This document shows, piece by piece, positions 1 through 12,078 of a DNA stretch of 12,078 nt (its first letter is position 1; each line of letters opens with the position of its first letter). The stretch lies in the UHGV virus genome UHGV-0261881. One strand, 5' to 3'. A model generated the notes under the pieces. The model saw only the letters and a program-made list of their open reading frames with translations. It was not told the origin of the DNA and did not search any database. A program made the translations under genes and the position numbers. The DNA comes from a virus.

Positions 1-246
1 GCGGGTAGGTGTACCAAAAATAATGGCGTCGTAATCGGCCAGTTCTTGCGGGGTTGCAACCGGTGCAGTTTGCGTTTTACCGCCTGCTTTTTCAAATAAT
101 TGCGGCGGCATGGTTTCCGGTACACGCTTAACGACAACTTCTGCGCCATCCACTTTGCTTGCACCCTCAGCGACTGCGCGTGCCATCGTTTCAATATGTC
201 CGTACATGGAATAATAAAGCACTAGTATTCTTGCCTTAACACTCAT
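1..246 (-). CDS. wrbA: NAD(P)H:quinone oxidoreductase WrbA, N-terminal 82 codons (3' end runs off the window); first 8 codons supplied by the inserted element
   Basis: Minus-strand translation from ATG at 246-244 gives [82 protein letters not shown]. From VLYYSMYGH onward this matches the WrbA N-terminus as I recall it ([31 protein letters not shown]...). SD aggaga sits 8 nt upstream on the minus strand (plus 254-259). Confidence 0.92.
216..225. other. attL junction (host wrbA side | element side), crossover within or next to AAAGCAC
   Basis: Sequence ggaataatAAAGCAC|tagtattc: left part matches wrbA, right part does not. The same AAAGCAC is found at the right junction. Confidence 0.7.
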
Positions 247-297
247 ATCATTGTTCTCCTGTTCAATGAACCACTTAGATAAGCATAGTCCGAAGAT

Positions 298-1941
298 ATG
301 AAGCTGCTAGTGACATACATCAGGTGGAGTACTAAAGAGCAAGACTCAGGAGACTCCTTAAGACGGCAAACAAACCTCATTGATGCTTTCTACTCTAAGC
401 ACAAAAATGATTATTACCTTCTTCCTGCTCACAGATACGTTGATAAGGGTAAATCTGGTTTTCACCAGCAACATAAGAATCAAGGTTCTGACTTCAGACG
501 TATGTTTGAAAATGTTATGTCTGGGGCTATTCCAGAAGGTTCCTTGATTGTTGTAGAGAACTTTGACCGCTTCAGTAGGGCTGATATCGACACAGCTATA
601 GATGATGTCAGGCAGATACTGAGGAAAGGAGTCTCTATACTGACTCTGGGAGATGGTGAACTCTACGACAAATCAGCATTAACAGACCCTGTGAAGTTGA
701 TTAAGCACATCATCATAGCTGAGCGAGCACATCAGGAATCTCTTGTTAAACAAAAGCGTATAGCTCAGGTCTGGAACCATAAAACACAGCTTGCAAGAGA
801 ACTTAAGAAGCCTATGGGTAAGCAAGCCCCCGGATGGTTAGAGCTATCAGATGATGGTTCACACTACATCGTTGATGAAGATAAAGCGTCACTGGTGAAT
901 ATCATCTATGACAAGCGTCTTTCTGGTATGTCGATGTTTGCTATCTGCAAATGGCTAAACGAACAAGGTTACCCGACCATTAATCAGCGTAAGGTCAGAA
1001 TATCCAAGACTAAGAAACCTGATGGTAACTGGTCAGCATTAAGCGTTAAACACATCCTGACTTCACGAAGTGTATTAGGTTACCTTCCCGCTAAGATTTC
1101 TACAGAAGACCGTAAAACAGTGTTACGTGAAGAAATTGAAGGGTTCTATCCTCAGATTGTCACAGACTCTAAGTTTTACGCTGTACAGCAACTGTTAGAG
1201 GAAACAGGGAAGGGGAAAACATCCAGCGGTGAACACTGGCTATATGTGAACATACTGAAGGGGCTTATCCGTTGTAAGTGTGGGCTTGTAATGACTCCTA
1301 CAGGGATACGTAAACCCGTTTATCAAGGTACTTACCGTTGCAATGGTAATAAGGAGTCCCGTTGTAGCTACGGTACAGTGTCCAGAAAGTTACTTGATAC
1401 ACAGCTTTGTAGTCGTCTGTTTAGCAAACTGTCACAGCTACACGATGAAGCTACCGATACAGCTAAATTAGATGAACTGCAACGCAGACTAAACACCGTT
1501 GATAGTGAACTGGAAAAACTCACTGAGACGCTGATACAGCTTCCTAACATCACTCAGATTCAAGAAGCACTACGGGTTAAACAGGAAGAAAAAGATGAAC
1601 TGATAGTTCAGTTATCACGAGAAAAGGCGAGGGTAAAATCTGTATCAAGCTTGGATTTAAGCGGTCTTGATATGGAGTCTGTAGAGGGGAGAACTGAAGC
1701 CCAGATTATTATTAAGCGTTTGGTGAAAGAGATTGTTGTTTCTGGTAATGAAAAGCTGGTGGATATATATCTTCACAATGGAAATATGATTCGTGGTTTT
1801 CCTCTTGATGGTAAAGATGACCACACCTTAACGCTTGAAGAAGCAACCGATGAGATGCAGTCATTAGATGATATGCTTATTTTTGGTGAACCAGTAACAA
1901 GGATTTATCCTGCTGGTGATATGGAAGAGGTGGACGCTTAG
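298..1941 (+). CDS. Large serine recombinase (integrase), 547 aa
   Basis: N-terminal catalytic motifs YIRWSTKEQ (catalytic Ser), [15 protein letters not shown] and ERAHQESL. Cys-rich stretch IRCKCG...[14 protein letters not shown] consistent with a recombinase zinc ribbon. Coiled-coil-like C-terminal region ([21 protein letters not shown]). ATG start at 298. Position next to the att junction. Confidence 0.88.
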
Positions 1942-1944
1942 GAA

Positions 1945-1960
1945 TTGGTATTGTTACCAA
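1945..1960. terminator. Hairpin between convergent genes (TTGGTA-ttgt-TACCAA), possible bidirectional terminator without a clear U-tract
   Basis: Perfect 6-bp inverted repeat with a 4-nt loop, exactly filling the gap between the integrase stop (1939-1941) and the minus-strand gene stop (1961-1963). Confidence 0.3.
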
Positions 1961-2734
1961 TCAATAAGTGCCCTTCTTATTCGGATTCACACTAAATTTC
2001 CGTAAAGCATTACCCGACTTAAGCACTTTTGAAGCCTGCTCATTAGCTGAGGCTGTGAAGGTGCTTACACCATCTTTCACCGTGACATTTTTAGAGCAAT
2101 TGCTACGGACCCTTAGCGCTTCATCAGATAGCTCAGATGCTGAGTAGCTATACAGTTCCTGACACATCAACATAGGTGCGTTATTGCGTTCAGTAGTCAC
2201 GTTACCCGCATTCTTCTTAGAAGTTGCGCCACCATCATTTGTGGTAGCGGCCTTTCCAGTTGCAGCAGAGATATCAGTCTGACCAACAACAGCTTTAAAG
2301 TTAATTTCCTGAAAAGTTAGCTGGATTCTTAGACCATTTGAAATACCAACATCTTTAGATGCTTTAAAGCTTGTAATAATGGAATCATCAATTTTAATTC
2401 CGTCCTTACAGATAACAGAAATAATTTGCTTCTGGTCACGCCAGCTTTCAAGAGTGTCAATGAAGTTTTCTACTAATTGACCCTGACGAGTTAATAATAA
2501 GCTTCCTTCATAGCCAACTACAACGACACCACTAATAGTGATTGTTCTGGGTGCTCTTTGCACATTATCTGTGACGGTTTGCCCTGATTGCATGTTCTGT
2601 GTAGTCACCTGCATAGGGCTATCAAATTCCATGTTTTCAGTTGCTGATAAGGTTAAGAAGGCATCTACATTGTCTCTTAAGTGGAAATAGATGCCATCTT
2701 TGCCACTGTAACGAATCTGATTAGAGTAAATCAT
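1961..2734 (-). CDS. Hypothetical protein, 257 aa; weak resemblance to a phage distal-tail/structural protein given its position after the tape-measure-like gene
   Basis: Long ORF. The track's TTG start at 2755 is replaced here by the ATG at 2734-2732, which has a strong SD (aaggag, 7 nt upstream on the minus strand). Beta-rich-looking sequence ([15 protein letters not shown]). No catalytic motif recognised. Confidence 0.6.
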
Positions 2735-2813
2735 TAAATTCTCCTTTGATTTCAAAGGCTTAGTGTATTTTAATCATTTTTAACCAAGCCTTTGATATAT
2801 AAGTATTTTCTCT

Positions 2814-2895
2814 GTTAAGCGTGAGCTACGTAAATTCTATTTTTCAGTGCAGGTATTAACTTTGCTTTATTCACGTAGCATTCGACTATTCATAG
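2814..2895 (-). promoter_or_regulatory. Promoter-like cassette, copy A, upstream of the 257-aa gene
   Basis: About 37 bp nearly identical to copy B (taagcgtgagctacgtaaattctatttttcagtg). On the minus strand it reads ...ctgaaaaaTAGAATttacgtagc..., a -10-like TAGAAT with no good -35. Dyad arms GCTACGTAAAT (2825-2835) and ATTCACGTAGC (2869-2879) flank and overlap the -10. Confidence 0.45.
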
Positions 2896-2968
2896 TTGAA
2901 TCGTCATACTAGATAAAGATTAATAGATTGCCATGTGTGGCAATAAATATTAGTAGTTCTAACATTGT

Positions 2969-5044
2969 TTATTCCTCTGGGTAAGCTGAGCTAATCAAGG
3001 TATCTTCCTGCATACGATTAATATGCGATGTGGTTCTTTCATCAATAACCTTTCCATCAAGTACCGTCTGAGTTGTGATATTGATTGTCTGAGGCTGAAT
3101 GTTTACTGACGGCTTGATAACCTTTAAATCTTGTGTGAATGTTTCCACTCGACCTTTCAGATTATTTAATGCTTCAGGTGAAAACTGTGGAACATCTTTT
3201 GATTTGCCCTGAACCATAGCCCATAAAACAGCGGCTAAAGAGTTCATGTCACCAGACAATGCTTGGTCTGTAGGTTCCACCTTTGACCTTACAACTTTGT
3301 CAATTGGATTATCTGACTTACTCATCTGACGTTCATAGAACGGTTTAACAATGGAGTTAATCACATCAGTTGCCATACCGACAATCATTACTTTGGTAAT
3401 TGCATCAGCTACAGATAATTTTCCTTTACCACCTTCAACACTACCGGAACGTGAATTAATTCTTCCTGCTGCTGTATTTGCTACATTTCCAAGCGTGGAA
3501 ATAGCCCTAATTAAGCTCCAGATGCCACCTACAGCACCAATACCAGACCTTACAGCAACAATACCAGCAAGTCCCTTTAATGCACTTAACAGGCCATTTG
3601 CGATACCATCAGCTACAGCTTTTTGAGTGTCATTTAATTCTCTGTAAGCAAGGGTCACTCTGTCAAAGAATCCCTGCACTCGGTAGCTAATCGTGGTTAA
3701 ATCATCAATACCGTTTGACATACTTTTCATCAAGTCGCCAAAATGTTCACCAAGATTTTTAGATTGCCCACCTAGCGAATTAAGTAAATTAGTCAGTGAC
3801 CTTGTAAAGTCTGTTAAACCTTCCTGTGAACCGTCGAACATTAAGGCCAGATTATTATTCCATGAATTAGAAAGGCGGCCTAACTGCGTCTGAGTAGAGT
3901 TAATAATCTTTTCCCATCCACCAGCTTTATCAATCATCCTTCCCATTTCAGCGGATACTTTAGGAAGAACATCTTTAGAAAGAACTTTACCGTCTTTCAT
4001 AGCCTTGTCTAATTCTTCTGTAGTCATCCCAAGGCTTCTGGCAAATAACTGGAAAGCACCTGCCATTCTGTCACCTAATTGACCACGTAGCTCTTCAGCC
4101 TGAATCTTCCCTTTAGAAGCCATCTGCTCGAAAGCTTTCAGAATCCCGTTAATTTCATCAGTACTTAAACCCATTAATCTGGATGTGCCAATCACATTAC
4201 TAAATAAGGATTCTTTCTGGCCTGCATCCATATCACCAGCACCAGCGGAAAACTTAGCAAAACTGCTTAATGTTTCAATCTGGTCAACACCAGTATTATT
4301 AGCAAGATTCTTAACAAATTCTGTAGCTCGTTTAGCACCTTCATCACCTAAAACGAATTGTGCCGCTCGTTGTGATGCTTCTTTTTTCAGACCAACCTCC
4401 ATAATCTTCCTGTAAGCTTCTAAGGCTGTCTGAAAACTATAAATGGCTGTACCTGCTTTGATTGCACTTGTAGCTAATACATCCAGACCATTCGAAGCAT
4501 TTTCACTGTGATTATTTTTGCTGGTGGTCTTGTTAAACTTAGAAAGTGTTTCACGAAGAGACTGATTTAATTTTGCTAACTCACGATTAAAAGCTTCGTT
4601 TCCAAGTGTCTTGGATTTACTACTTAATGCGTAAAACTGACTCTTAATGTATTTCTCGACAATTGGGTTAAGACCTTTCAGCTTGCTCATATTCGCTGAA
4701 TAAGCTGCTGTGATTGCTCTGTTTCCGCTAATTCGTGGTTGCCTTGATTGTTTTGGAGGATTAACAGTGTCATTAAATCTGGTGGCAAACTGAAATGCTT
4801 TTGTGCTTCTTGCTCTCTGTTCAATCTTGTCAAAGGTCTTATTAAACTTCCTTTCAAGCTGCCCTAAAGAACTTGTCAGATTGCTGTCAAGTTGCTTGGT
4901 ATCGACCTTAAACGCTCTATTCAAATTGCGTTCAATTCTTTGTGCTGACTGCAAAGCTGCCTTTTCAACTCTTTGCAAGCCCTTAATAACGTTTTCACTG
5001 AAACTAAGTTCAACGATAAAACTATCAACTGTGAATTTGCTCAT
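2969..5044 (-). CDS. Tape-measure-like protein (phage tail length tape measure domain), 691 aa
   Basis: Central block GLSTDEINGILKAFEQMASKGKIQAEELRGQLGDRMAGAFQLFARSLGMTTEELDKAMKDGKV resembles the tape-measure core domain. Gly/Ala-rich hydrophobic segment (GLLSALKGLAGIVAVRSGIGAVGGIWSLIRAISTLG) and coiled-coil-like N-terminus are typical of tape measure proteins. ATG start with SD agaggtg. Confidence 0.65.
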   Translation of the reverse strand: MSKFTVDSFIVELSFSENVIKGLQRVEKAALQSAQRIERNLNRAFKVDTKQLDSNLTSSLGQLERKFNKTFDKIEQRARSTKAFQFATRFNDTVNPPKQSRQPRISGNRAITAAYSANMSKLKGLNPIVEKYIKSQFYALSSKSKTLGNEAFNRELAKLNQSLRETLSKFNKTTSKNNHSENASNGLDVLATSAIKAGTAIYSFQTALEAYRKIMEVGLKKEASQRAAQFVLGDEGAKRATEFVKNLANNTGVDQIETLSSFAKFSAGAGDMDAGQKESLFSNVIGTSRLMGLSTDEINGILKAFEQMASKGKIQAEELRGQLGDRMAGAFQLFARSLGMTTEELDKAMKDGKVLSKDVLPKVSAEMGRMIDKAGGWEKIINSTQTQLGRLSNSWNNNLALMFDGSQEGLTDFTRSLTNLLNSLGGQSKNLGEHFGDLMKSMSNGIDDLTTISYRVQGFFDRVTLAYRELNDTQKAVADGIANGLLSALKGLAGIVAVRSGIGAVGGIWSLIRAISTLGNVANTAAGRINSRSGSVEGGKGKLSVADAITKVMIVGMATDVINSIVKPFYERQMSKSDNPIDKVVRSKVEPTDQALSGDMNSLAAVLWAMVQGKSKDVPQFSPEALNNLKGRVETFTQDLKVIKPSVNIQPQTINITTQTVLDGKVIDERTTSHINRMQEDTLISSAYPEE

Positions 5045-5057
5045 TCATGTTTCACCT

Positions 5058-5140
5058 CTTTAAGCGTGAGCTACGTAAATTCTATTTTTCAGTGTGGATA
5101 TTAGCTTTACAGATTTCATGTAGCACACATAGGATTCGAT
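5058..5140 (-). promoter_or_regulatory. Promoter-like cassette, copy B, immediately upstream of the tape-measure-like gene
   Basis: Same core as copy A. -10-like TAGAAT on the minus strand (plus 5079-5084) sits about 35 nt upstream of the ATG at 5044. Lies between an intrinsic terminator (5160-5201) and the gene start. Confidence 0.5.
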
Positions 5141-5159
5141 AGAAGACTATCTCATATAC

Positions 5160-5201
5160 AAAAAAGGGAGAAACTACCGATATCACTCGATAATCTCTCC
5201 C
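5160..5201 (-). terminator. Rho-independent terminator after the 67-aa gene
   Basis: Minus strand reads GGGAGAgattatcgagtgatatcggtagttTCTCCC followed by TTTTTT: 6-bp GC-rich stem plus U-tract, about 25 nt downstream of the stop at 5227. Confidence 0.6.
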
Positions 5202-5226
5202 GTTGATTTTCACCCAACCAATCTTT

Positions 5227-5430
5227 TTACCTAACCAGATAATAATTACCATCTTCACCGACAATCTGACAATCACTTGGTAATTTATCAAGACACCATT
5301 TAGCGATTCTTCTGATTCTGTTATTTTGCTTAGAGGTGGATGATTTGATTCGTTTTGGTTTGTTGGGTTGTTCTTTCAGTCGTTCACTAATTGCCTTGAT
5401 GAGTTCATAGCGTTCTGTTAAATCAATCAT
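5227..5430 (-). CDS. Hypothetical small basic protein, 67 aa
   Basis: ATG start with a strong SD (aaggaggtg). N-terminus MIDLTERYEL is paralogous to the upstream 102-aa protein (MSDLTERDKR). Confidence 0.55.
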   Translation of the reverse strand: MIDLTERYELIKAISERLKEQPNKPKRIKSSTSKQNNRIRRIAKWCLDKLPSDCQIVGEDGNYYLVR

Positions 5431-5455
5431 TCACCACCTCCTTTTTAATTCGATT

Positions 5456-5764
5456 TTAATCTAAGTAGTGTATACACTCGACACCGCGTTCATTCTTTTG
5501 AATTTCATAACGTAGTGAAAGACCAGTTTGATAATACACAGTATCAAGCTTATTTATCTTATCCTTGAGTTCGATAAGAAGTCGCGTTAAATCATCCCGA
5601 CCATCACACTTTAGTTCGGCAAGAGGCTTTTCTTCCATACGACCAATAAGATATTCAGTGACCTCCTGAATATCACCAAGAGTCATTTTAATTTCATTGA
5701 ACCTATCTTCAAAAGGCTCCATCACCCATTTCATTCTTTTATCGCGTTCTGTTAAATCACTCAT
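5456..5764 (-). CDS. Hypothetical small acidic protein, 102 aa
   Basis: ATG start. Its start overlaps the stop region of the upstream 234-aa gene (5764 versus 5773), suggesting translational coupling. Shares the M-x-DLTER N-terminus with the 67-aa protein. Confidence 0.6.
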   Translation of the reverse strand: MSDLTERDKRMKWVMEPFEDRFNEIKMTLGDIQEVTEYLIGRMEEKPLAELKCDGRDDLTRLLIELKDKINKLDTVYYQTGLSLRYEIQKNERGVECIHYLD

Positions 5765-5772
5765 TATTCACC

Positions 5773-6477
5773 TCAAACAGCCTTGCTAAATTCTCGTGGA
5801 ACACTCAGAAAATCATTGAAGCTGATAATCTGTGCCAACTCTTGACGGTACTCCTTAGCCAGCGCTTGATGGTCACTAATCAGCTTAGCCAGTCTTGATT
5901 TCAGCAATTTAATCTCATTTTCTCTTGCTTTCATCAGTTTCTCTTTGGCAATTTCTTCAAGCTCAGCTTGTGATTTATCAGCAACAATTAGAGACAGTTG
6001 ATGTGGCGCTCTGATGGCCCTTTCCGTACGAATAACCCTTTGACCTTCTGGTAAATCTGCAATCACTTTACCAATCTCTACAGGGTCATACCCCCAACCG
6101 TCACGGTCTAGTCGAGAGAAATAAGCATAAGGATTGGTTTGAAGCTCCATCAAAATAGCCATTTCGTCGATTTCGTCTTCAAGCTTGGACTGAATTTTCT
6201 CGTAAACACTTCTCATTGCTTCTTGAGAGTCTTTAATAGCTTGGAAATATCGGCGTTGCAGCTTCAGTTTCAAATCAAGCTCACATTTCTCATTCATCGA
6301 AAAATCAATTTCAACTCTTGGAATCTCGAGTGGTTCTGGTGGAATATATGGACCTTTATTTACTTCGTGTGATTCCCGCCAAGCTCTATCAAAAGATTCA
6401 CGCAAAGTTAATTCGTGAATATCAAGTGCACTTGGTCTGTTCTCAACAATCATTTCATTTTCATCACGGATAGCCAT
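5773..6477 (-). CDS. Hypothetical protein, 234 aa, charged and coiled-coil-rich
   Basis: Long ORF with ATG start. Its SD (agaagagga) lies inside the 3' arm of an 11-bp hairpin. No motif recognised. Confidence 0.6.
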   Translation of the reverse strand: MAIRDENEMIVENRPSALDIHELTLRESFDRAWRESHEVNKGPYIPPEPLEIPRVEIDFSMNEKCELDLKLKLQRRYFQAIKDSQEAMRSVYEKIQSKLEDEIDEMAILMELQTNPYAYFSRLDRDGWGYDPVEIGKVIADLPEGQRVIRTERAIRAPHQLSLIVADKSQAELEEIAKEKLMKARENEIKLLKSRLAKLISDHQALAKEYRQELAQIISFNDFLSVPREFSKAV

Positions 6478-6487
6478 TAATATTTTT

Positions 6488-6556
6488 CCTCTTCTAAGAT
6501 AATTTACGTTTCAGTTTTTAAAAAGCACACCTGACAACCTACGAACTTAGAAGAGG
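6488..6556 (-). promoter_or_regulatory. 5'-UTR hairpin sequestering the SD of the 234-aa gene
   Basis: Perfect 11-bp inverted repeat CCTCTTCTAAG (6488-6498) / CTTAGAAGAGG (6546-6556) with a 47-nt loop. On the minus-strand mRNA the 3' arm contains the SD, 10 nt before the ATG. Confidence 0.5.
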
Positions 6557-6594
6557 CTTAAAAGGCGTTTGCCAAGTATGCTTTTTAAAAGCTG

Positions 6595-6631
6595 AAAAAA
6601 GCCCTAGATAACTAAAACGCTATAAAGGGCT
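6595..6631 (-). terminator. Rho-independent terminator ending the upstream minus-strand operon
   Basis: Minus strand reads AGCCCTttatagcgttttagttatctAGGGCT followed by TTTTT(T). Confidence 0.5.
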
Positions 6632-6949
6632 AAGGTGAAGAAATTAAAACATCTAAAGGATTCAATAACGAATGAACAAGAGTACTTTTCGAGATGACCT
6701 CTCAGGTTATATAAGAGGTCATGTAGCGAAAAGCATTGCACCTTTCCAAATCAGAATATCCATCCATCGGATTATTGAAAATATGATTTTAGGAAGAGTT
6801 GCTCTTCCCTATAATTAAAATTATGTCATACTTAAGGTTATTTGTCAACAGCCTTTTAACAGATTGGTAACATCAATTTCTATTTACTGTGTTGCCTACC
6901 CAGCAACCAACAAATAAGCCAAGCAACGTCCAAGCAATTATTAAGCCCA

Positions 6950-7279
6950 TTAGTGAACCCTCACAGAATCCGTAACCAAAATATTGTCGCTGTACAGGAT
7001 TGTCACAGCACCTTTCAAAAATTGCTCTGGGGAAATACTGTATTTGTTCGTTTGCTCGATAACCAATCTTTTCATGTTGCTGTCTTTAATTGGTAGCATC
7101 ATTCGAGGCTCGTTAAACTCCACCGACTGAATAAAGTCAGAGATGCTTTCCGCATTATCAGTCATTAACTCTAACAACTTATCAAAGTCAACGCTAACAC
7201 CTACATCAGCGAAAGCCTGAATCATCATGGCGGTGTCGGTATCAATAAAAATCTGTAGTGGGAAGTTTAATTCTCTCAT
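6950..7279 (-). CDS. Hypothetical protein, 109 aa
   Basis: ATG start with SD aaggag. Lies immediately downstream (minus strand) of structured repeat copy 1. Confidence 0.55.
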   Translation of the reverse strand: MRELNFPLQIFIDTDTAMMIQAFADVGVSVDFDKLLELMTDNAESISDFIQSVEFNEPRMMLPIKDSNMKRLVIEQTNKYSISPEQFLKGAVTILYSDNILVTDSVRVH

Positions 7280-7304
7280 TTCTTAAAATCTCCTTTTTAC
7301 CAGA

Positions 7305-7430
7305 CCTCCTCAATCGCTCTGTAACGAGCTAAACAGTCTTTTTCAGGGGTAGCCTGTACAGTGGTATTACCCACCCTAAAATAAGGTAGTTTTTTGCGTT
7401 AGAATGCGATTGAGAGCGTCTGAGAAGCTG
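7305..7430 (+). repeat. Structured inverted-terminus repeat (SIR), copy 1, between the HNH-like gene and the 109-aa gene
   Basis: Aligns base-for-base in the same order with copy 2 (same orientation) and with the reverse complement of copy 3. Shared blocks GCTCTGTAACGAG, CAGGGGTAG, TACCCACCCTAAAATAA, GTTAGAATGCG and AGAGCGTCTGAGAAGCT. Termini are mutually complementary (CTCAATCGC / GCGATTGAG). Confidence 0.75.
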
Positions 7431-7435
7431 TTTTT

Positions 7436-7723
7436 CTAATTTCTCTTAAAGTCTCGGACTTGCATAAGATTTTTTGGTCTGGTATCGGCTCTGTTACCAT
7501 TTCGATGGATAATTTGCTTGTTGGATTGATAGCCATGATAAAGGAACCAGACAACATATTTCACGTAGAAAGTATATCGGCCTATATTAAATGTTTTGTT
7601 GCCGTAGTCGTCGGTATTTATCGTGACTGACTCTCCATCAGACCAGCACAGGGAATCACTGGATTCATCATAGATAAGGTGTTCTGTAAAATATCGTCTA
7701 ACATCTTCATGCCAAGGTTTCAT
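7436..7723 (-). CDS. Small HNH-family endonuclease-like protein, 95 aa
   Basis: C-terminal YVKYVVWFLYHGYQSNKQIIHRNGNRADTRPKNLMQV resembles the HNH motif of phage-type HNH nucleases (consensus-like ...W..hnG...IDHINGN..DNR..NLR). ATG start overlaps the upstream gene by 4 nt. Confidence 0.55.
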   Translation of the reverse strand: MKPWHEDVRRYFTEHLIYDESSDSLCWSDGESVTINTDDYGNKTFNIGRYTFYVKYVVWFLYHGYQSNKQIIHRNGNRADTRPKNLMQVRDFKRN

Positions 7724-7935
7724 AAAACCTCCTCACCCCAATAACCTAATTCAATCTTGTGACGCTCAAACCATTCCGGTTTAACTGCTGTTTTCAGTAC
7801 TTCATTTGGGTCAATGGCTTTAATGAAAATATCTTTTGAGTTATGGATGTCACCGAATCCGTTTCCTTTAATCAGGAGGTCGGAGATGTAGCGAATCATT
7901 TTATCTGTGTGGTATTCAAAGGTAACGCATAGCAT
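7720..7935 (-). CDS. Hypothetical protein, 71 aa
   Basis: ATG start overlapping the upstream stop (TAATG). Part of a tightly coupled operon. Confidence 0.5.
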   Translation of the reverse strand: MLCVTFEYHTDKMIRYISDLLIKGNGFGDIHNSKDIFIKAIDPNEVLKTAVKPEWFERHKIELGYWGEEVL

Positions 7936-8213
7936 TAAACCTCCATCGCTAACTTGTGAATCTTAAGACTCAATAGACGGGCAATATCAATTTTAAAGCC
8001 GTTAAGTGCCTTCAAAGTATCTAAAGCGTCCTGACTAATTCGGATGTGCTTACGACCTTTAGAGACTGGATATTTAAGTAAATCCGACTCAGTGACCTCT
8101 TTAGCAATTGCAAGTTGCATAATAGTTTGATGAGGTAAGTTAGTTGCTTGTTTAATTCTGGTAAGCTCGTTAAAAGCTTCCTCTGAAATACGGGTTAATG
8201 TGTGTTTATTCAT
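7935..8213 (-). CDS. Putative ribbon-helix-helix (RHH)-like DNA-binding protein, 92 aa
   Basis: N-terminus KHTLTRISEEAFNELTRIKQATNLPHQTIMQLAIAKE fits a strand-helix-helix pattern like CopG/Arc-type RHH. A second similar pattern (HIRISQDALDTLKALNGFKIDIARLL) follows. Stop of the upstream gene directly abuts its ATG. Confidence 0.4.
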   Translation of the reverse strand: MNKHTLTRISEEAFNELTRIKQATNLPHQTIMQLAIAKEVTESDLLKYPVSKGRKHIRISQDALDTLKALNGFKIDIARLLSLKIHKLAMEV

Positions 8214-8768
8214 TTAAAATTCCTCTGTAACTAAATACGGGTCAAACTCGAAATCTGGTTCACTAATCGTAAGGCTGATATTGCCCACTTCCGCATGATG
8301 ATTAATTGTCTCAATAACTTTCATGCAAATAGTGGCTAAGTTAGCGCAATATTTATCGCTTGGTAATTCATAGCTAAGTCTGGTTGCTTGTCTTTGAAGA
8401 TGGCTCGTCACTGTGCTTGAGCTAATCTTATCAAGGCTTCGAAGCAAATAGAAAATCTTCCGGTGATAGTTATCCCTTCCAAAGCTGCGACAAGTGCCGA
8501 TAATTACATCTTCAATTCGTGATGGTAGTTGCTCGTAAGAATCAAAGCCCATCAAGAAAGTTTTTAAAGTATTTTCTTTTTCTTTGCGTGTTGGCATATA
8601 TCTGTCTCGTGGCGTAATGCTACGAATGACCGCTTCAATGTTCTTACGTTCGGATTTGCTAAAGGTTGGGACTTCGTAGCTGGTGGGGGTGTCTGTGTAG
8701 CTGTAACCGTTGCTTCTGTTTCTTGCTTTGCTCTCTTCAAGAAACTTTTGAAAATCTTTGTCGTTCAT
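8214..8768 (-). CDS. Hypothetical protein, 184 aa, first gene of the operon
   Basis: ATG start 43 nt downstream of a consensus-like promoter. No motif recognised. Confidence 0.6.
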   Translation of the reverse strand: MNDKDFQKFLEESKARNRSNGYSYTDTPTSYEVPTFSKSERKNIEAVIRSITPRDRYMPTRKEKENTLKTFLMGFDSYEQLPSRIEDVIIGTCRSFGRDNYHRKIFYLLRSLDKISSSTVTSHLQRQATRLSYELPSDKYCANLATICMKVIETINHHAEVGNISLTISEPDFEFDPYLVTEEF

Positions 8769-8817
8769 TCATAAGCTGGCCCTTATAATTGTTAATTTCC
8801 TGTTAACTATATATACA

Positions 8818-8846
8818 ATCTTAGCAGTTTCAAAGGCTAATGTCAA
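8818..8846 (-). promoter_or_regulatory. Sigma70-type promoter of the minus-strand four-gene operon
   Basis: Minus strand reads TTGACA (plus 8846-8841), a 17-nt spacer, then TAAGAT (plus 8823-8818). Confidence 0.6.
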
Positions 8847-8854
8847 GCATTTTT

Positions 8855-8884
8855 TTAACATTTGATTAACATTTATGGTATAAT
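8855..8884 (+). promoter_or_regulatory. Extended -10 promoter firing rightward into the ORF-poor region
   Basis: TTAACA (8855-8860), 18-nt spacer, TGgTATAAT (8876-8884). Divergent from the operon promoter. Confidence 0.55.
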
Positions 8885-8917
8885 GGTTTTATGAGAGAGG
8901 GAAAATATAAAGGCGTG

Positions 8918-8975
8918 GCTATGAGGTTTATTCGATAAACCGAATCAACTATGAGAATGGTCACATGGTTATTGC
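8918..8975 (+). repeat. Direct repeat Rep2, copy A (contains cgaatcaactatgag)
   Basis: Homologous to 10493-10592 in the same orientation (ctatgagRtt ... cgaatcaactatgag ... aatggttatt). Confidence 0.6.
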
Positions 8976-8986
8976 ATTGCACACAG

Positions 8987-9082
8987 GCCTCTTCAATCGC
9001 TCTGTAACGAGTTAAATGGCCTCTTCAGGTCAACTCATAAGGTCAGGTACTTTTTGTATCAGAATGCGATTGAGAGCGTCTT
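8987..9082 (+). repeat. Structured repeat (SIR), copy 2 (shorter), forming the leader of a small ORF
   Basis: Shares the 5' block cttcaatcGCTCTGTAACGAG and 3' block AGAATGCGATTGAGAGCGTCT with copy 1. The central part differs. Terminal 8-bp complementarity TCAATCGC / GCGATTGA. Confidence 0.7.
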
Positions 9083-9095
9083 ACAAGGAAAACTA

Positions 9096-9272
9096 ATGGT
9101 AAACCTCCCTCCTGAGCTGGGGTCACCTGATGTTTGGGCTGGTGGAGGTGTGGGTCTGATTGCAGGCCTGCTACTTCGCTACGTCCTCGTCAGAGTGCTT
9201 GTTGTCTTTAAACTGTTCGGTCGTACATGGACGCTTGACCTTAAGGATAATGACCACACAGACCCCCGTTAA
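9096..9272 (+). CDS. Putative small membrane protein, 58 aa
   Basis: ATG at 9096 with SD aagga 7 nt upstream. Translation MVNLPPELGSPDVWAGGGVGLIAGLLLRYVLVRVLVVFKLFGRTWTLDLKDNDHTDPR has one hydrophobic helix and a charged tail. Weak hairpin (CCCCT/AGGGG, 9286-9309) downstream. Confidence 0.35.
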   Translation: MVNLPPELGSPDVWAGGGVGLIAGLLLRYVLVRVLVVFKLFGRTWTLDLKDNDHTDPR

Positions 9273-9391
9273 ACCCCCTTCAAAACCCCTATACCATCTC
9301 GTACAGGGGTATCTTTAGCATTTTGTGCTATCTATTAAAAAATAGCTTGACAGAACCGGAAAGCTGTATTTATCAAGTATTCACCTCTCTG

Positions 9392-9564
9392 ACAGTGATT
9401 TCTAAAAATACTTATTTTTCAATGAGTTGTAATCACCCATATATAGAGAACTGACAAGTCTCTTCACAGAGAACTCTGTAACCTTAACAGTAATTTCTAA
9501 AAATACTTATTTTTCAATGAGTTGTAATCACCCAATATATAAGGCTGTCCAGTACCTTCACAGA
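9392..9564 (+). repeat. Tandem direct repeat, two units of ~80 bp with a 95-bp period
   Basis: Units 9392-9470 and 9487-9564 share a ~55-bp near-identical core (acagtRatttctaaaaatacttatttttcaatgagttgtaatcacccatatata) and a downstream cttcacaga. A GCTCTGTAAC-like motif lies between the units (9474-9482). Confidence 0.7.
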
Positions 9565-10375
9565 TGACTTCAAGCCTTCTTAGCTATCCACTAAGCGGGA
9601 GAAGAGCGATAACCCCAGAGAGGGAAGCTCCCTTCTAATTGGTATTGTTATGAGGATGCTTCATCCGAATCATCTACCAATCCCTAAACCGACTCTCTTA
9701 ACCAGCCCTTTACGTTATTCGTTCACAGTGTTGATAAGTGGTTTTGCCCTCTGTTTCTGTTATCATCGGGCTTACCTTATCAGGGCTTTGAAATGCCCTG
9801 TAACTCCCCTCTTAACGGGAGAGAAAGAACATAGTGACCCCAAGCGAAGCGCCCCTCTAAAAAGATTTTTTAGCTACTTTGTTTAAAAGCACATCAAACG
9901 ATACATTTTATTGATTTAGGTCAAAGACAAAAGCATTGACAAAATGGTAAGATTGTTCACATGACCTTACTTAACAGATTCTTAAGAGCTTTGAAACGGC
10001 CTATTTAACAAGGTCACTACCTACGGTTCTTCGTTTTCCTTCTTTCTAGGTAGTCATCTGTTAAGAGTTTTTCAGTCTTACTCTTAAGAATCACTGTTAA
10101 GATGATACTCTCCCCTTCGGGTTATATCGTATCTCTTCTCCCGTTAAACACCCCTTCCTAACTATCTACATAATCACTTCTAAGAATCTTACAAGGTAAT
10201 ATCCAGACCTCTTATAGTTGACCTGATACAGAAGTTTTACAGGCATACTCTCTAGGTTACTAATCGGGTGCTATCAAGGGCCACTAAACGAGAGAGGGGA
10301 TATGTGACCATAGGGGAACCCCTCCTGTTAAAAAGGCCACTTAGAAGTCTGAGACTTTAGTAAAATCTGTGAATA

Positions 10376-10492
10376 TAGCTTCTCAGGCGCTCTGTAACGC
10401 ATTCTAAGCGATTTTACCCCTTTATTTTAAGGTGGGTGGTACATCCCTATAGACTACCCCTAAAAATGGGGTTAAAACTCGCTACAGAGCTT
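10376..10492 (-). repeat. Structured repeat (SIR), copy 3, inverted relative to copies 1 and 2
   Basis: The reverse complement of 10371-10500 aligns along its length with copy 1 (blocks GCTCTGTAGCGAG, AGGGGTAG, TACCACCCACCTTAAAATAA, GCTTAGAATGCG, AGAGCGCCTGAGAAGCT). Termini are complementary (GCTCTGTAGCG / CGTTACAGAGC). Confidence 0.7.
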
Positions 10493-10592
10493 TCTATGAG
10501 ATTAGCTTCATGAAGTAATTCATTACTGAATCACCTAATCGAATCAACTATGAGGCTTGGTAAGATTGTGCAAAATCTGTACAATGGTTATT
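10493..10592 (+). repeat. Direct repeat Rep2, copy B
   Basis: See Rep2 copy A. Here it abuts SIR copy 3. Confidence 0.55.
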
Positions 10593-10850
10593 TGGCTTCT
10601 GAAAATTTTTACAAAAATCATAGTAGCCCTCTTTGAATCTCATCTTCCCCGAATCTTCAAAAATATCTGACAGATGTCTGTAGCTGCTAAGTACCCGTCA
10701 CACCAGCTATGTGACCCCCTTTGCAAAAAAGCCAAATATCTATTGACTTTCTATGTGAATTGCTATAAAGGCATCTATCTAGACCTTTAACTGTATAAAT
10801 ACACATGACAACAAACGCCCGTTAAGTGTCTATATAAAAAGGTAGCTGTA

Positions 10851-10895
10851 GCTATAGACAACAATTGTGATAATTGATTTAATGGCTATAGACAA
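10851..10895 (+). promoter_or_regulatory. Two direct GCTATAGACAA repeats upstream of the small recombinase gene (candidate operator or binding sites)
   Basis: Identical 11-mers at 10851-10861 and 10885-10895 (34-bp spacing). Related TATATAG-like motifs at 10828-10836 and 10914-10922. Confidence 0.4.
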
Positions 10896-10935
10896 GCAAG
10901 ACAGACCTTTGTTGACTATATAGAGAGATAAGAAC

Positions 10936-11505
10936 ATGCGTACATTCCTTTATGCTCGTGTATCAGTTGATGACCTCACCACACAAAACCAAGTAGAAGC
11001 TGTTAAACGTGCTGGTTATGAAGTCAAACCTTCACGAGTGATTGAGGAAGTTATTAGTGGTGCTACACCAGCTATGGACAGACCACAATTTGTAAAGCTG
11101 GTGGATAAGCTGGAAGAAGGTGATTGTCTTGTAGTGACCAAGATTGACCGCTTAGGAAGGGATAACATTGATGTACAGAAGACCGTCACAATGTTACTGG
11201 ATATGGGTGTGAAGCTAATTTGTTTAGACCTGCCTGTAAAAGACCTTTCAAGTGCTGAAGGTAAACTTATCCTTCAACTATTCAGTACCTTTGCAGAGTT
11301 TGAACTTAACCGCATCAGAGAGCGAACCAGAGAGGGCTTAGAACGAGCTAAAGCACAAGGTAAGGTGTTGGGTCGTCCTGTAGCTAAAAACACTACAGAG
11401 GCCGTTTTAGAGCATAAGGCAAAGGGATTGTCACAAAGTCAGGTTGCAAAGCTTCTGAATCTCTCTGTGAGAACGGTTAGCCGTCACTGGACAAAGACAC
11501 TGTAA
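10936..11505 (+). CDS. Small serine recombinase (resolvase/invertase family), 189 aa
   Basis: Motifs YARVS (catalytic Ser), VVTKIDRLGRD and ERTREGLERAKAQGKVLGRP, plus a C-terminal helix-turn-helix (GLSQSQVAKLLNLSVRTVSRH). ATG start. Confidence 0.88.
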   Translation: MRTFLYARVSVDDLTTQNQVEAVKRAGYEVKPSRVIEEVISGATPAMDRPQFVKLVDKLEEGDCLVVTKIDRLGRDNIDVQKTVTMLLDMGVKLICLDLPVKDLSSAEGKLILQLFSTFAEFELNRIRERTREGLERAKAQGKVLGRPVAKNTTEAVLEHKAKGLSQSQVAKLLNLSVRTVSRHWTKTL

Positions 11506-11526
11506 GAAACTTAGTAGCATCTTCAT

Positions 11527-11550
11527 AGCCTCCTTCATGGGGGCTTTTTT
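11527..11550 (+). terminator. Rho-independent terminator after the small recombinase gene
   Basis: AGCCTCC-ttcat-GGGGGCT stem (one G-U pair) followed by TTTTTT, about 22 nt after the stop. Confidence 0.6.
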
Positions 11551-11558
11551 GTATCCAC

Positions 11559-11626
11559 TCTCTAAGCGTGTCCTACGCAAAATCTCCTGAACACTTACCC
11601 ACCCTCAGAAATAACTTTCACGTAAG
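11559..11626. repeat. Diverged third copy of the promoter-like cassette (copy C), containing a TTACCCACCCT block shared with the SIR repeats
   Basis: ctctaagcgtgtcctacgcaaaatctc resembles the cassette A/B core. The loop contains ttacccaccctcagaaataa, similar to TACCCACCCTAAAATAA in SIR copy 1. 3' arm ctttcacgtaag. Confidence 0.45.
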
Positions 11627-11937
11627 AAACTGTTAAGCAGCTTGATAGTTATTCTGTGTGACCAAACATCTATATATCGTTATATAGTCCTGTATATAGC
11701 ACTTTTCTAGGAGTCGAGAGAGGGACGACTAACACGATACAGTTTACCCTGAAAAGAGACTTCACAGATTCTCTATATATTTCAATAAGTTAGGCTAAAA
11801 AGAGACTATACCGATACTGCATAGAATCTGTGTAAAACTGCTTAGATACTTGGGAAAATGCCTTTAAATTGAATAGGGATTCACCTGATATTGTCCTGTT
11901 ATTAACAGGTAGTTGAATGTACGTGTTTAGCTATGTA

Positions 11938-11947
11938 AAAGCACCAG
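11938..11947. other. attR junction (element side | host wrbA side)
   Basis: Sequence ctatgtaaAAAGCAC|cagaactttagccat: the right part is the reverse complement of the native wrbA start ATGGCTAAAGTTCTGGTGC. Confidence 0.7.
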
Positions 11948-12078
11948 AACTTTAGCCATTTCTAACCACTCCTCGTGTTATCTCTATTCCGTAGCGATTC
12001 GCTACCACTTATTTAAAGATAAGACGTCCTTTTCAGAGTGCAAATTTCACAACCACTTATTTGATTTATAACAACTTT
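11945..12078 (-). other. wrbA: Displaced native wrbA start codon (11959-11957), first codons, SD and native upstream region
   Basis: Minus strand reads gaggagtggttagaaATGGCTAAAGTTCTGGTGC..., giving MAKVLV, the native WrbA N-terminus. It is separated from the rest of wrbA (1-222) by the element. Confidence 0.8.

Follow-up and report, generated by a model that had tools for sequence, protein, structure and literature searches.

The 12,078-nt stretch of virus genome UHGV-0261881 analysed here (the window) contains an 11.7-kb integrated element, probably an undescribed satellite family of Felix-O1-like phages, in which two helper-related tail genes, encoding a tape-measure protein and a Dit-like tail hub, are each preceded by a copy of the same palindromic cassette. 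The cassette has a constant anatomy and internal spacing, faces its genes at stereotyped distances, is conserved across the family and is carried by other mobile elements as well. We tentatively read it as a factor-dependent promoter without a −35 hexamer, fused to an operator, a proposal derived from sequence comparison that seems to us plausible, if somewhat short of probable.

The initial annotation had described a duplicated cassette of about 85 bp with an identical core of about 37 bp. The duplication is real, and both lengths had to be reduced: a repeat search aligned 2815–2880 with 5060–5125 at 85% identity over 66 nt, with an identical core of 35 nt (2815–2849 and 5060–5094), and comparison with relatives delimited a fixed-length unit of 65 nt on the minus strand. 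An exact 35-nt repeat in 12 kb is far beyond chance. Each unit consists of a left arm at positions 1–11 (GCTACGTGAA(A/T), consensus GCTACGTGAAW), a 33-nt variable loop at positions 12–44, a right arm at positions 45–55 ((A/T)TT(C/T)ACGTAGC, consensus WTTYACGTAGC) and an invariant gene-proximal box TCACGCTTAA at positions 56–65. When a covariance model built from the relatives' cassettes was run on the window, exactly three cassettes (A, B and C) were found, the next-best non-reverse-strand match scoring 10 bits, and no additional half-sites occur in the window beyond these three copies. The features of A, B and their surroundings are as follows.

2815–2879, minus strand: cassette A, 65 nt, 80 nt upstream of the Dit-like ATG (2734); covariance model 80 bits
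2869–2879, minus strand: left (5′) arm of A, GCTACGTGAAT
2825–2835, minus strand: right (3′) arm of A, ATTTACGTAGC, with G·T at pair 8–48
2834–2839, minus strand: −10-like TAGAAT of A, cassette positions 41–46
2815–2824, minus strand: box TCACGCTTAA of A
5060–5124, minus strand: cassette B, 65 nt; covariance model 83 bits
5114–5124, minus strand: left arm of B, GCTACATGAAA, with an A·C mismatch at pair 6–50
5070–5080, minus strand: right arm of B, ATTTACGTAGC
5079–5084, minus strand: −10-like TAGAAT of B
5060–5069, minus strand: box TCACGCTTAA of B
5166–5201, minus strand: intrinsic terminator (15-bp stem, T6) ending the 234/102/67-aa operon just upstream of B
2927–2944, minus strand: short hairpin ATTGCCA/TGGCAAT after the tape-measure stop and upstream of A, weakly terminator-like
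2744–2803, minus strand: stable 13-bp leader hairpin between cassette A and the Dit-like ribosome-binding site; z = −2.94

The dyad arms and the hexamer are as first annotated. On the plus strand the arms read GCTACGTAAAT at 2825–2835 and 5070–5080 and ATTCACGTAGC at 2869–2879, the remaining arm of B at 5114–5124 being TTTCATGTAGC with one additional mismatch, and TAGAAT lies on the minus strand at 2839–2834 and 5084–5079 with no −35 match in a sigma-70 scan. The box of A together with the next 3 nt forms CTTAACAG, which is CTGTTAAG on the plus strand (2812–2819). Copy B likewise sits, as annotated, between the terminator (minus strand, 5201–5166) and the tape-measure ATG at 5044; its box ends 15 nt before this ATG and abuts the Shine-Dalgarno sequence AGAGGTG. 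The terminator is conserved in 8/8 aligned elements, including two without copy B, and the hairpin at 2927–2944 is missing from some relatives. As for the leader hairpin downstream of A, the Shine-Dalgarno sequence AAAGGAG is a possible alternative pairing partner of its 3′ half (AAGCCTTTG), suggestive of control at the level of translation; the hairpin is absent from a variant of the relatives with a 19-nt leader.

Searching related elements for the dyad, a check foreseen in the initial annotation, recovered 176 instances, drawn from E. coli genomes, IMG/VR and metagenomes and reducing to 55 distinct sequences of 65 nt, and confirmed the conservation of the unit in relatives. Hardly any variation affects arms and box among the 55 distinct cassettes. 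The loops form at least five sequence types within the family, which are mosaics of left and right halves, with their length kept at 33 ± 1 nt. Other arm gaps (9–38 and 42–72 nt) gave chance matches only, save one variant in which a 27-nt palindrome lies inside the left arm (L005, about 11667–11760; L011, 4511–4599). At positions 41–46 the hexamers are TATTTT (23), TAGAAT (15), TAGATT (5), TAATTT (3), CAGAAT (2) and TAGTTT (1), with A at hexamer position 2 and T at position 6 kept in all forward-loop variants.

The cassette behaves as a 5′ control element: wherever one of the 176 instances is followed by a gene, its box points to that gene. The box ends 12–19 nt before the tape-measure start (27 nt in one locus) and 19 or 78–81 nt before the Dit-like start. 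Of 113 loci, 112 have a cassette ahead of the Dit-like gene (107 full, 5 half), a figure biased by the retrieval of these loci through their cassette match. A duplication serving to co-regulate both genes, as first suggested, can apply to only about half the family, since the tape-measure gene is preceded by a full cassette in 50 loci, by a half-cassette in 5 and by none in 45. Copy B is missing, with the terminator kept, in the O157:H7 element, which lies in yecE and has cassette A, and in two further relatives (L007 and L008), and its presence shows no correlation with any element gene.

The same arms, box and spacing, with unrelated loops, were found in three contexts outside the family. 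One is a P1-like phage (Cronobacter phage JK004, with relatives in IMG/VR or metagenomes), where the cassette has loxP and a LexA box on one side, the LexA box about 90 nt upstream, and on the other, 32 nt away, the ATG of a 353-aa gene preceding cre; the second is an A+T-rich bacterium (L117), in which it lies 36 nt upstream of the ATG of a Xer-like tyrosine recombinase; and the third is an enterobacterial chromosome, where it is placed between nlpC and a convergently oriented GGDEF-EAL gene and is not followed by a gene. Homologues of 12 window proteins were sought near these three cassettes and none were found; conversely, the satellite loci contain no homologue of the 353-aa gene of the P1-like phage or of the recombinase in L117. 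The absence of shared proteins indicates that any binder is not encoded alongside the cassette. The candidate regulators put forward at first, a ribbon-helix-helix-like protein and the 102/67-aa paralogues, are therefore unsupported, the 102-aa protein being rare as well.

In the mechanism that we propose, the −10-like hexamer at positions 41–46 would place the transcription start inside the right arm, and the invariant box would form the first bases of a short leader running directly into the ribosome-binding site. Three half-sites of CGTGA type, in the left arm (about −52/−42, centred near −47), the right arm (about −8/+3, centred near −2) and the box (about +4/+13, centred near +8), would be bound by an oligomeric DNA-binding regulator. 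The two tail genes, their starts insulated by terminators from upstream transcription, could then be switched together. Promoter activity itself is inferred here, as are the position of the start, whether a regulator exists and where it comes from, and when the genes are expressed once a helper has infected.

Several observations fit a promoter. The box faces the gene at a stereotyped distance in the satellite, P1-like and Xer-like contexts alike. The terminator directly before B fits insulation, and in one relative (L002) its T-run directly adjoins the left arm, so that no other promoter would fit between them. The hexamer is TAGAAT in A and B and nAnnnT in all forward-loop variants, as expected of a sigma-70 −10 element, so that the two most critical −10 positions are always kept. 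Free loop sequence at fixed length fits a constraint on DNA spacing. Recognition of double-stranded DNA by sequence is favoured by the arms, in which sequence rather than pairing is conserved: the covariation score was reached by 55/500 shuffles and is not significant, and single-strand DNA folding of A, B and C gave only −7.1, −2.6 and −5.6 kcal/mol, with the arms pairing in A alone. The absence of a −35 hexamer is typical of activator-dependent late promoters.

A number of points weigh against a promoter. There is no −35 hexamer, and the sigma-70 scan gave no minus-strand site in A or B; there is no extended −10 either, the hexamer being preceded by AA and not TG, and positions 17–23 vary by loop type. 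Since −10 positions 43–46 lie within the extended palindrome (15 bp in L098), conservation of the hexamer is only partly independent evidence, and the regulated promoter of the initial annotation keeps its orientation, its place behind a terminator, the retained A and T and the missing −35 while losing part of the force of its −10. In about 45% of relatives the tape-measure gene is intact and still follows the terminator but has no cassette in front, so either read-through must suffice there or the gene is silent. Copy C has an inverted loop and no downstream gene. No DNA-binding Pfam or NCBIfam match above threshold was obtained among the tested element proteins, the HNH endonuclease aside, and the lack of homologues of the 12 window proteins at the extra-family cassettes counts on the same side. 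The G·T-biased changes of the inner stem would be explained better by an RNA hairpin, and in the P1-like phage, with its LexA box about 90 nt upstream, the cassette may simply be transcribed as leader.

The last two points lead to the chief alternative, possible but rather doubtful, that the cassette is an RNA element of the 5′ untranslated region, with an 11–15-bp stem, a dispensable loop and a single-stranded box CACGCUUAA beside the Shine-Dalgarno sequence. It would be transcribed from upstream, by terminator read-through or antitermination in the satellite and from a LexA-controlled promoter in the P1-like phage, and would act on the downstream cistron through its translation, its stability or its processing, for instance by RNase III or E. 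Pair 8–48 is G–C in 23, G·U in 31 and A–U in 1 of the 55 distinct cassettes, and the one-sided changes of the inner stem are mostly G·T on the transcribed-sense strand (8–48, 7–49 and 4–52), copy C having three such pairs, against a single A·C at 6–50. The mirror change, A8 with C48, never appears among the distinct cassettes, whereas a symmetric DNA operator would be expected to accept it just as well. In all three copies the RNA minimum-free-energy fold contains the arm stem, the sequence and even the orientation of the loop are free while arms and box are kept, and the box abuts the Shine-Dalgarno sequence; the elements without B, which need read-through into the tape-measure gene, make read-through transcripts plausible. 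Of the cells of the stem, 88% are paired. However, RNA folding z-scores are about −1.1, covariation is not significant, the G·U bias is suggestive only, and the stems are conserved by sequence and not by compensation. A strong terminator stands right upstream of B, L002 has no room for a promoter, and a fixed length is unusual in an RNA loop of free sequence. An Rfam scan of the window gave nothing at the cassettes, its sole match at E ≤ 1 being a spurious miRNA at 6499–6612, which originates from an inverted repeat at 6509–6597 (29-nt arms, 86% complementary).

A broader interpretation, to which we give still less weight, takes no side between DNA and RNA: the cassette would be no ordinary promoter but a portable, self-contained palindromic expression switch of arms, box and free 33-nt loop, read by a trans factor either as a DNA or as an RNA hairpin and shared by satellites, the P1-like phage-plasmid and other mobile elements. 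Were this so, the factor would be supplied by host or phage and the cargo, in the satellite decoy or hijacking tail proteins, would be on only during infection.

Copy C, which the initial annotation had listed as a diverged third copy, bears on the remaining alternatives. It is a genuine cassette; an inverted loop and the lack of a downstream gene set it apart from A and B.

11562–11626, minus strand: copy C, arms and box in the orientation of A and B, loop inverted; covariance model 55 bits

The loop of C is the reverse complement of type-2/3 loops (gapped score +12 reversed versus −16 forward; shuffles −12.7 ± 3), and its arms have a C–G swap at pair 1–55 besides the G·T pairs. On the plus strand it consequently reads inverted box, arm, forward loop and arm, with TAACTT (11612–11617) at the −10 position pointing toward attR, a direction that would enter the integrase gene in the circularised element. 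No minus-strand open reading frame of at least 45 aa starts within 200 nt downstream of C, and no gene was found downstream of the right-end copies in relatives. C borders a variable module (10669–11611) and the conserved right end, and elements without the small recombinase have a half-cassette (right arm and box) in its place. A 27-nt direct repeat, 78% identical (11502–11528 and 11622–11648), flanks a segment with the recombinase terminator and copy C, and this segment looks as if it had been inserted or duplicated.

It seems unlikely that the cassettes are palindromic module junctions, or relics of a mobile element, that promote the exchange of gene modules and have no dedicated role in expression. 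They do flank exactly those modules that vary between elements (tape measure, hub and right-end cargo), C at a variable-module border included, and they occur in unrelated mobile elements. The mosaic loops, the loop inversion of C, the palindrome inserted in the left arm of L005 and L011 and the insertion sequence in the loop of two loci resemble palindrome-driven instability; in some copies a left-hand inverted box extends the inverted repeats to about 21 bp, with TTAA at their ends. Judging by these sequences, the cassettes are hot spots of rearrangement. As to the insertion sequence, it breaks the loop just before TAGAAT in Shigella flexneri L029 (3037–3101) and in L015. Against a mere junction, target-site duplications are lacking, and no genome has more than 5 matching places, all of them chromosomal; the box, present on one side only, is without exception the gene-proximal part wherever a gene follows; and the strict conservation of arms and box across hosts, in contrast to their flanks, implies selection for a function.

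More improbable still is a docking site for a helper-phage protein that binds CTGTTAAG/CTTAACA iterons and would serve in replication, packaging or helper sensing and not as a promoter. The window contains 7 copies of the octamer CTGTTAAG, where 0.68 would be expected, at the following positions.

9483, 9970, 10058 and 10094: CTGTTAAG copies
2812, 3585 and 11630: further CTGTTAAG copies, that at 2812–2819 overlapping the box of A and that at 11630–11637 abutting copy C

In Felixounavirus genomes the octamer is iterated at 11- and 31-nt spacing in a non-coding region of 1.1–1.6 kb, as in the helper-type phage garuso at 49.4–50.5 kb within a 1.6-kb non-coding region. The non-coding stretch at 9.4–10.6 kb of the window has blocks in common with the garuso iteron region, 10052–10066 (agtcatCTGTTAAGa) being identical to the garuso iteron context, and the array may be a helper-type origin or regulator array. 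In all A-type copies, moreover, CACGCTTAACAG is present. Yet copy B reads CTTTAAG, the extra-family cassettes lack the octamer, the invariant part is CACGCTTAA and not the iteron, and the phage genome has neither arms nor box. We regard as very improbable that the cassette is a res- or hix-like recombination site for the small serine recombinase (10936–11505): the sites have dyad symmetry and copy C lies about 55 nt downstream of that gene, with full C-type copies in both examined elements carrying this recombinase allele (the window and L004), but cassettes A and B are found in many elements that lack the recombinase, arms 33 bp apart are unlike a 26–30-bp crossover site, and recombination between the direct repeats A and B would delete the tape-measure gene.

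To return to the putative promoter with operator, its closest known counterparts are the Ogr/Delta-dependent late promoters of P2 and P4 (PF, PO, PP, PV, Psid and PLL), which have no −35, a good −10 and an upstream dyad, TGT-N12-ACA centred at about −55, and which stand in copies before several morphogenetic units, so that the satellite uses them to time helper-related genes. The cassette resembles them in the missing −35, the −10, the dyad and the position before morphogenetic genes of a satellite. It differs in that its second arm and box overlap the expected start, as an operator would; the TGT-N12-ACA dyad was not seen in the cassette sequences when read by eye, and Pfam and NCBIfam searches confined to the element proteins gave no Ogr/Delta-type zinc finger. 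The missing −35 fits the analogy to phage late promoters drawn in the initial annotation. A phage-collection search, sub-motif counts in garuso and a covariance-model search of garuso showed cassette, arms and box to be absent from helper-type phage, with no enrichment of arms or box, and the cassette is accordingly neither borrowed nor copied from a helper late promoter. In garuso the tape-measure and Dit-like genes abut without a spacer, which makes cassette A an element-specific insertion uncoupling the two genes.

Garuso has repeated promoter-like cassettes of its own, 90–103 nt long, before consecutive early genes at 44–49 kb (L041, 1–5000), with a −35-like TTTACA and, around the −10, a short dyad rich in G+C. 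These early-region repeats appear in the Felix O1 genome paper as direct repeats without an assigned function (PMC3185647). Like them, the satellite cassette places the same unit before consecutive genes with a dyad bracketing the −10 region; unlike them, it is unrelated in sequence and has neither the −35-like TTTACA nor the G+C-rich stems.

Other parallels are more distant. The Correia elements (nemis) of Neisseria are short palindromes before genes that can supply outward promoters and, when transcribed, processing hairpins. Their terminal repeats measure 26 bp, they duplicate a TA target and they number in the hundreds per genome, none of which applies to the cassette; a Correia-like miniature inverted-repeat element was rejected, the left inverted box being present in some copies only, with no duplication and at most 5 places per genome. 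By eye, the cassette recalls nut sites and rrn boxB–boxA in having a hairpin followed by a conserved single-stranded motif with terminators nearby, and CGCTTAACA vaguely resembles boxA (CGCTCTTA / GCTCTTTAACAA), a match that needs a 2-nt deletion. Unlike nut, the AACA part is lost in copy B, the cassette lies downstream of the nearest terminator, and an N-like protein was not identified. Integron attC sites are likewise imperfect palindromes with a variable centre that separate modules, and GCTTAAC fits RYYYAAC; they differ in that the cassette has one conserved end, GCTTAAA in copy B, a fixed length and no integron integrase. We rejected attC on the one-sided box, the departure of B from RYYYAAC and the serine recombinases, the Xer-like neighbour in L117 falling below the integron-integrase cutoff. 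The sigma E, 32, 28 and 54 consensus sequences, a T7-like promoter, the RfaH ops element, CRP, ArgR, DnaA and IHF boxes and the P1 ParB boxA showed by eye only partial resemblance at chance level.

The element that carries the cassettes is an insert in wrbA of 11.7 kb (240–11961 of the window), the halves of the wrbA site being 1–239 and 11962–12078. Element-free genomes align straight across the junction, placing the att junctions in wrbA, and the relatives examined are inserted in wrbA or yecE. The element was matched in 571/5426 complete E. coli genomes and the cassette region in 462; among GTDB species representatives, a scan with a 17-nt cassette core gave real matches only in Shigella flexneri and Escherichia albertii, the rest being mostly chance. 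Its recognised genes are as follows, besides that of an HNH endonuclease, which the minus strand encodes together with small proteins without assigned family.

298–1941, plus strand: large serine recombinase (serine integrase), by gene-family searches
1961–2734, minus strand: Dit-like tail hub (‘phage baseplate protein’) gene, 257 aa, ATG at 2734; Pfam Dit_like, phrog_3721
2969–5044, minus strand: tape-measure protein gene, 691 aa, ATG at 5044; Pfam TMP_3, phrog_4036
10936–11505, plus strand: small serine recombinase

Pfam, PHROGs, NCBIfam and PADLOC recognised only the serine recombinases, the tape-measure protein, the Dit-like protein and the HNH endonuclease, PADLOC by itself giving zero matches. 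These searches detected among the element proteins no P4 alpha primase, psu, sid or delta, none of alpA, pri-rep or terS of phage-inducible chromosomal islands (PICI) and no capsid genes of cfPICI; no capsid, terminase or replication genes were recognised in 240–11961, and the 234-, 184-, 109-, 102-, 92-, 71- and 67-aa proteins had no significant family or PDB match. The Dit-like gene has 94–95% nucleotide identity with many Felixounavirus genomes, its product being 77% identical overall to garuso gp119 and nearly identical at residues 6–180, and the tape-measure protein is 28% identical overall to that of garuso, with N-terminus, centre and C-terminus conserved. A 51-nt block at 9636–9686 is 100% identical to positions 311–361 of phage NBEco004, within the NBEco004 iteron array. 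The element is thus integrative, has an incomplete set of virion genes and carries helper-specific genes and cis sites, as is generic for phage satellites. Our assignment to a probable satellite family rests on the serine integrase, the wrbA att junctions, the Felixounavirus-related tail genes, the helper-type iterons and the NBEco004-identical block. A literature search found no paper on a Felixounavirus satellite, on the integration-site context or on the cassette sequence.

Further repeats were observed in the window. The 51-nt block has an internal inverted repeat TTGGTA...TACCAA, occurs in only 3 phage records and, in other elements of the family, lies near the right end, once inverted; a palindromic block at 10495–10545 (ATGAAGTAATTCATTACTGAATCAC...ATCGAAT) is common to the non-coding region of NBEco004 (about 980–1025). 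A second intergenic repeat of about 105–125 nt, distinct from the 65-nt cassette, occurs at 7301–7427 and 8984–9087 and, diverged, at 10374–10415; its long copies are 83–86% identical over aligned blocks of 37 and 42 nt, and one copy adjoins divergent sigma-70-like promoters at 8806–8884. A tandem repeat of about 95 nt (9392–9475 and 9487–9569; 48-nt core 98% identical) has a CTGTTAAG/CTTCACAGA motif close to the end of each copy. The best sigma-70-like promoter (6848–6820, 11/12 matches) is separated from the 234-aa gene by the inverted repeat at 6509–6597. The 67-aa (5227–5430) and 102-aa (5456–5764) proteins are N-terminal paralogues with repeated start regions; the 67-aa protein, present in all relatives, has an arginine-rich stretch NNRIRRIAKW, and the 102-aa copy is rare.

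A late-type promoter with an operator in a satellite is of a known kind, and this portable palindromic cassette and the element carrying it appear to be new. To our knowledge, the timing of hijacking genes has been worked out for very few satellites of virulent phages. How Felix-O1-like phages time their own genes is likewise unknown (PMC3185647). That these arms and this box recur in a P1-like phage and next to a Xer-like recombinase gene hints at the exchange of a regulatory module between unrelated mobile elements. Felixounavirus phages have been proposed for Salmonella control in food production (PMC8300805), and with the element in about 10% of complete E. coli genomes, O157:H7 included, its regulation bears on susceptibility to Felixounavirus. 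If the cassette is the switch for the tape-measure and hub genes of the satellite, it would provide a defined 65-bp handle to find the sensing factor, infection-responsive reporters would become possible, and the remodelling or sabotage of helper tails by the element would become testable.

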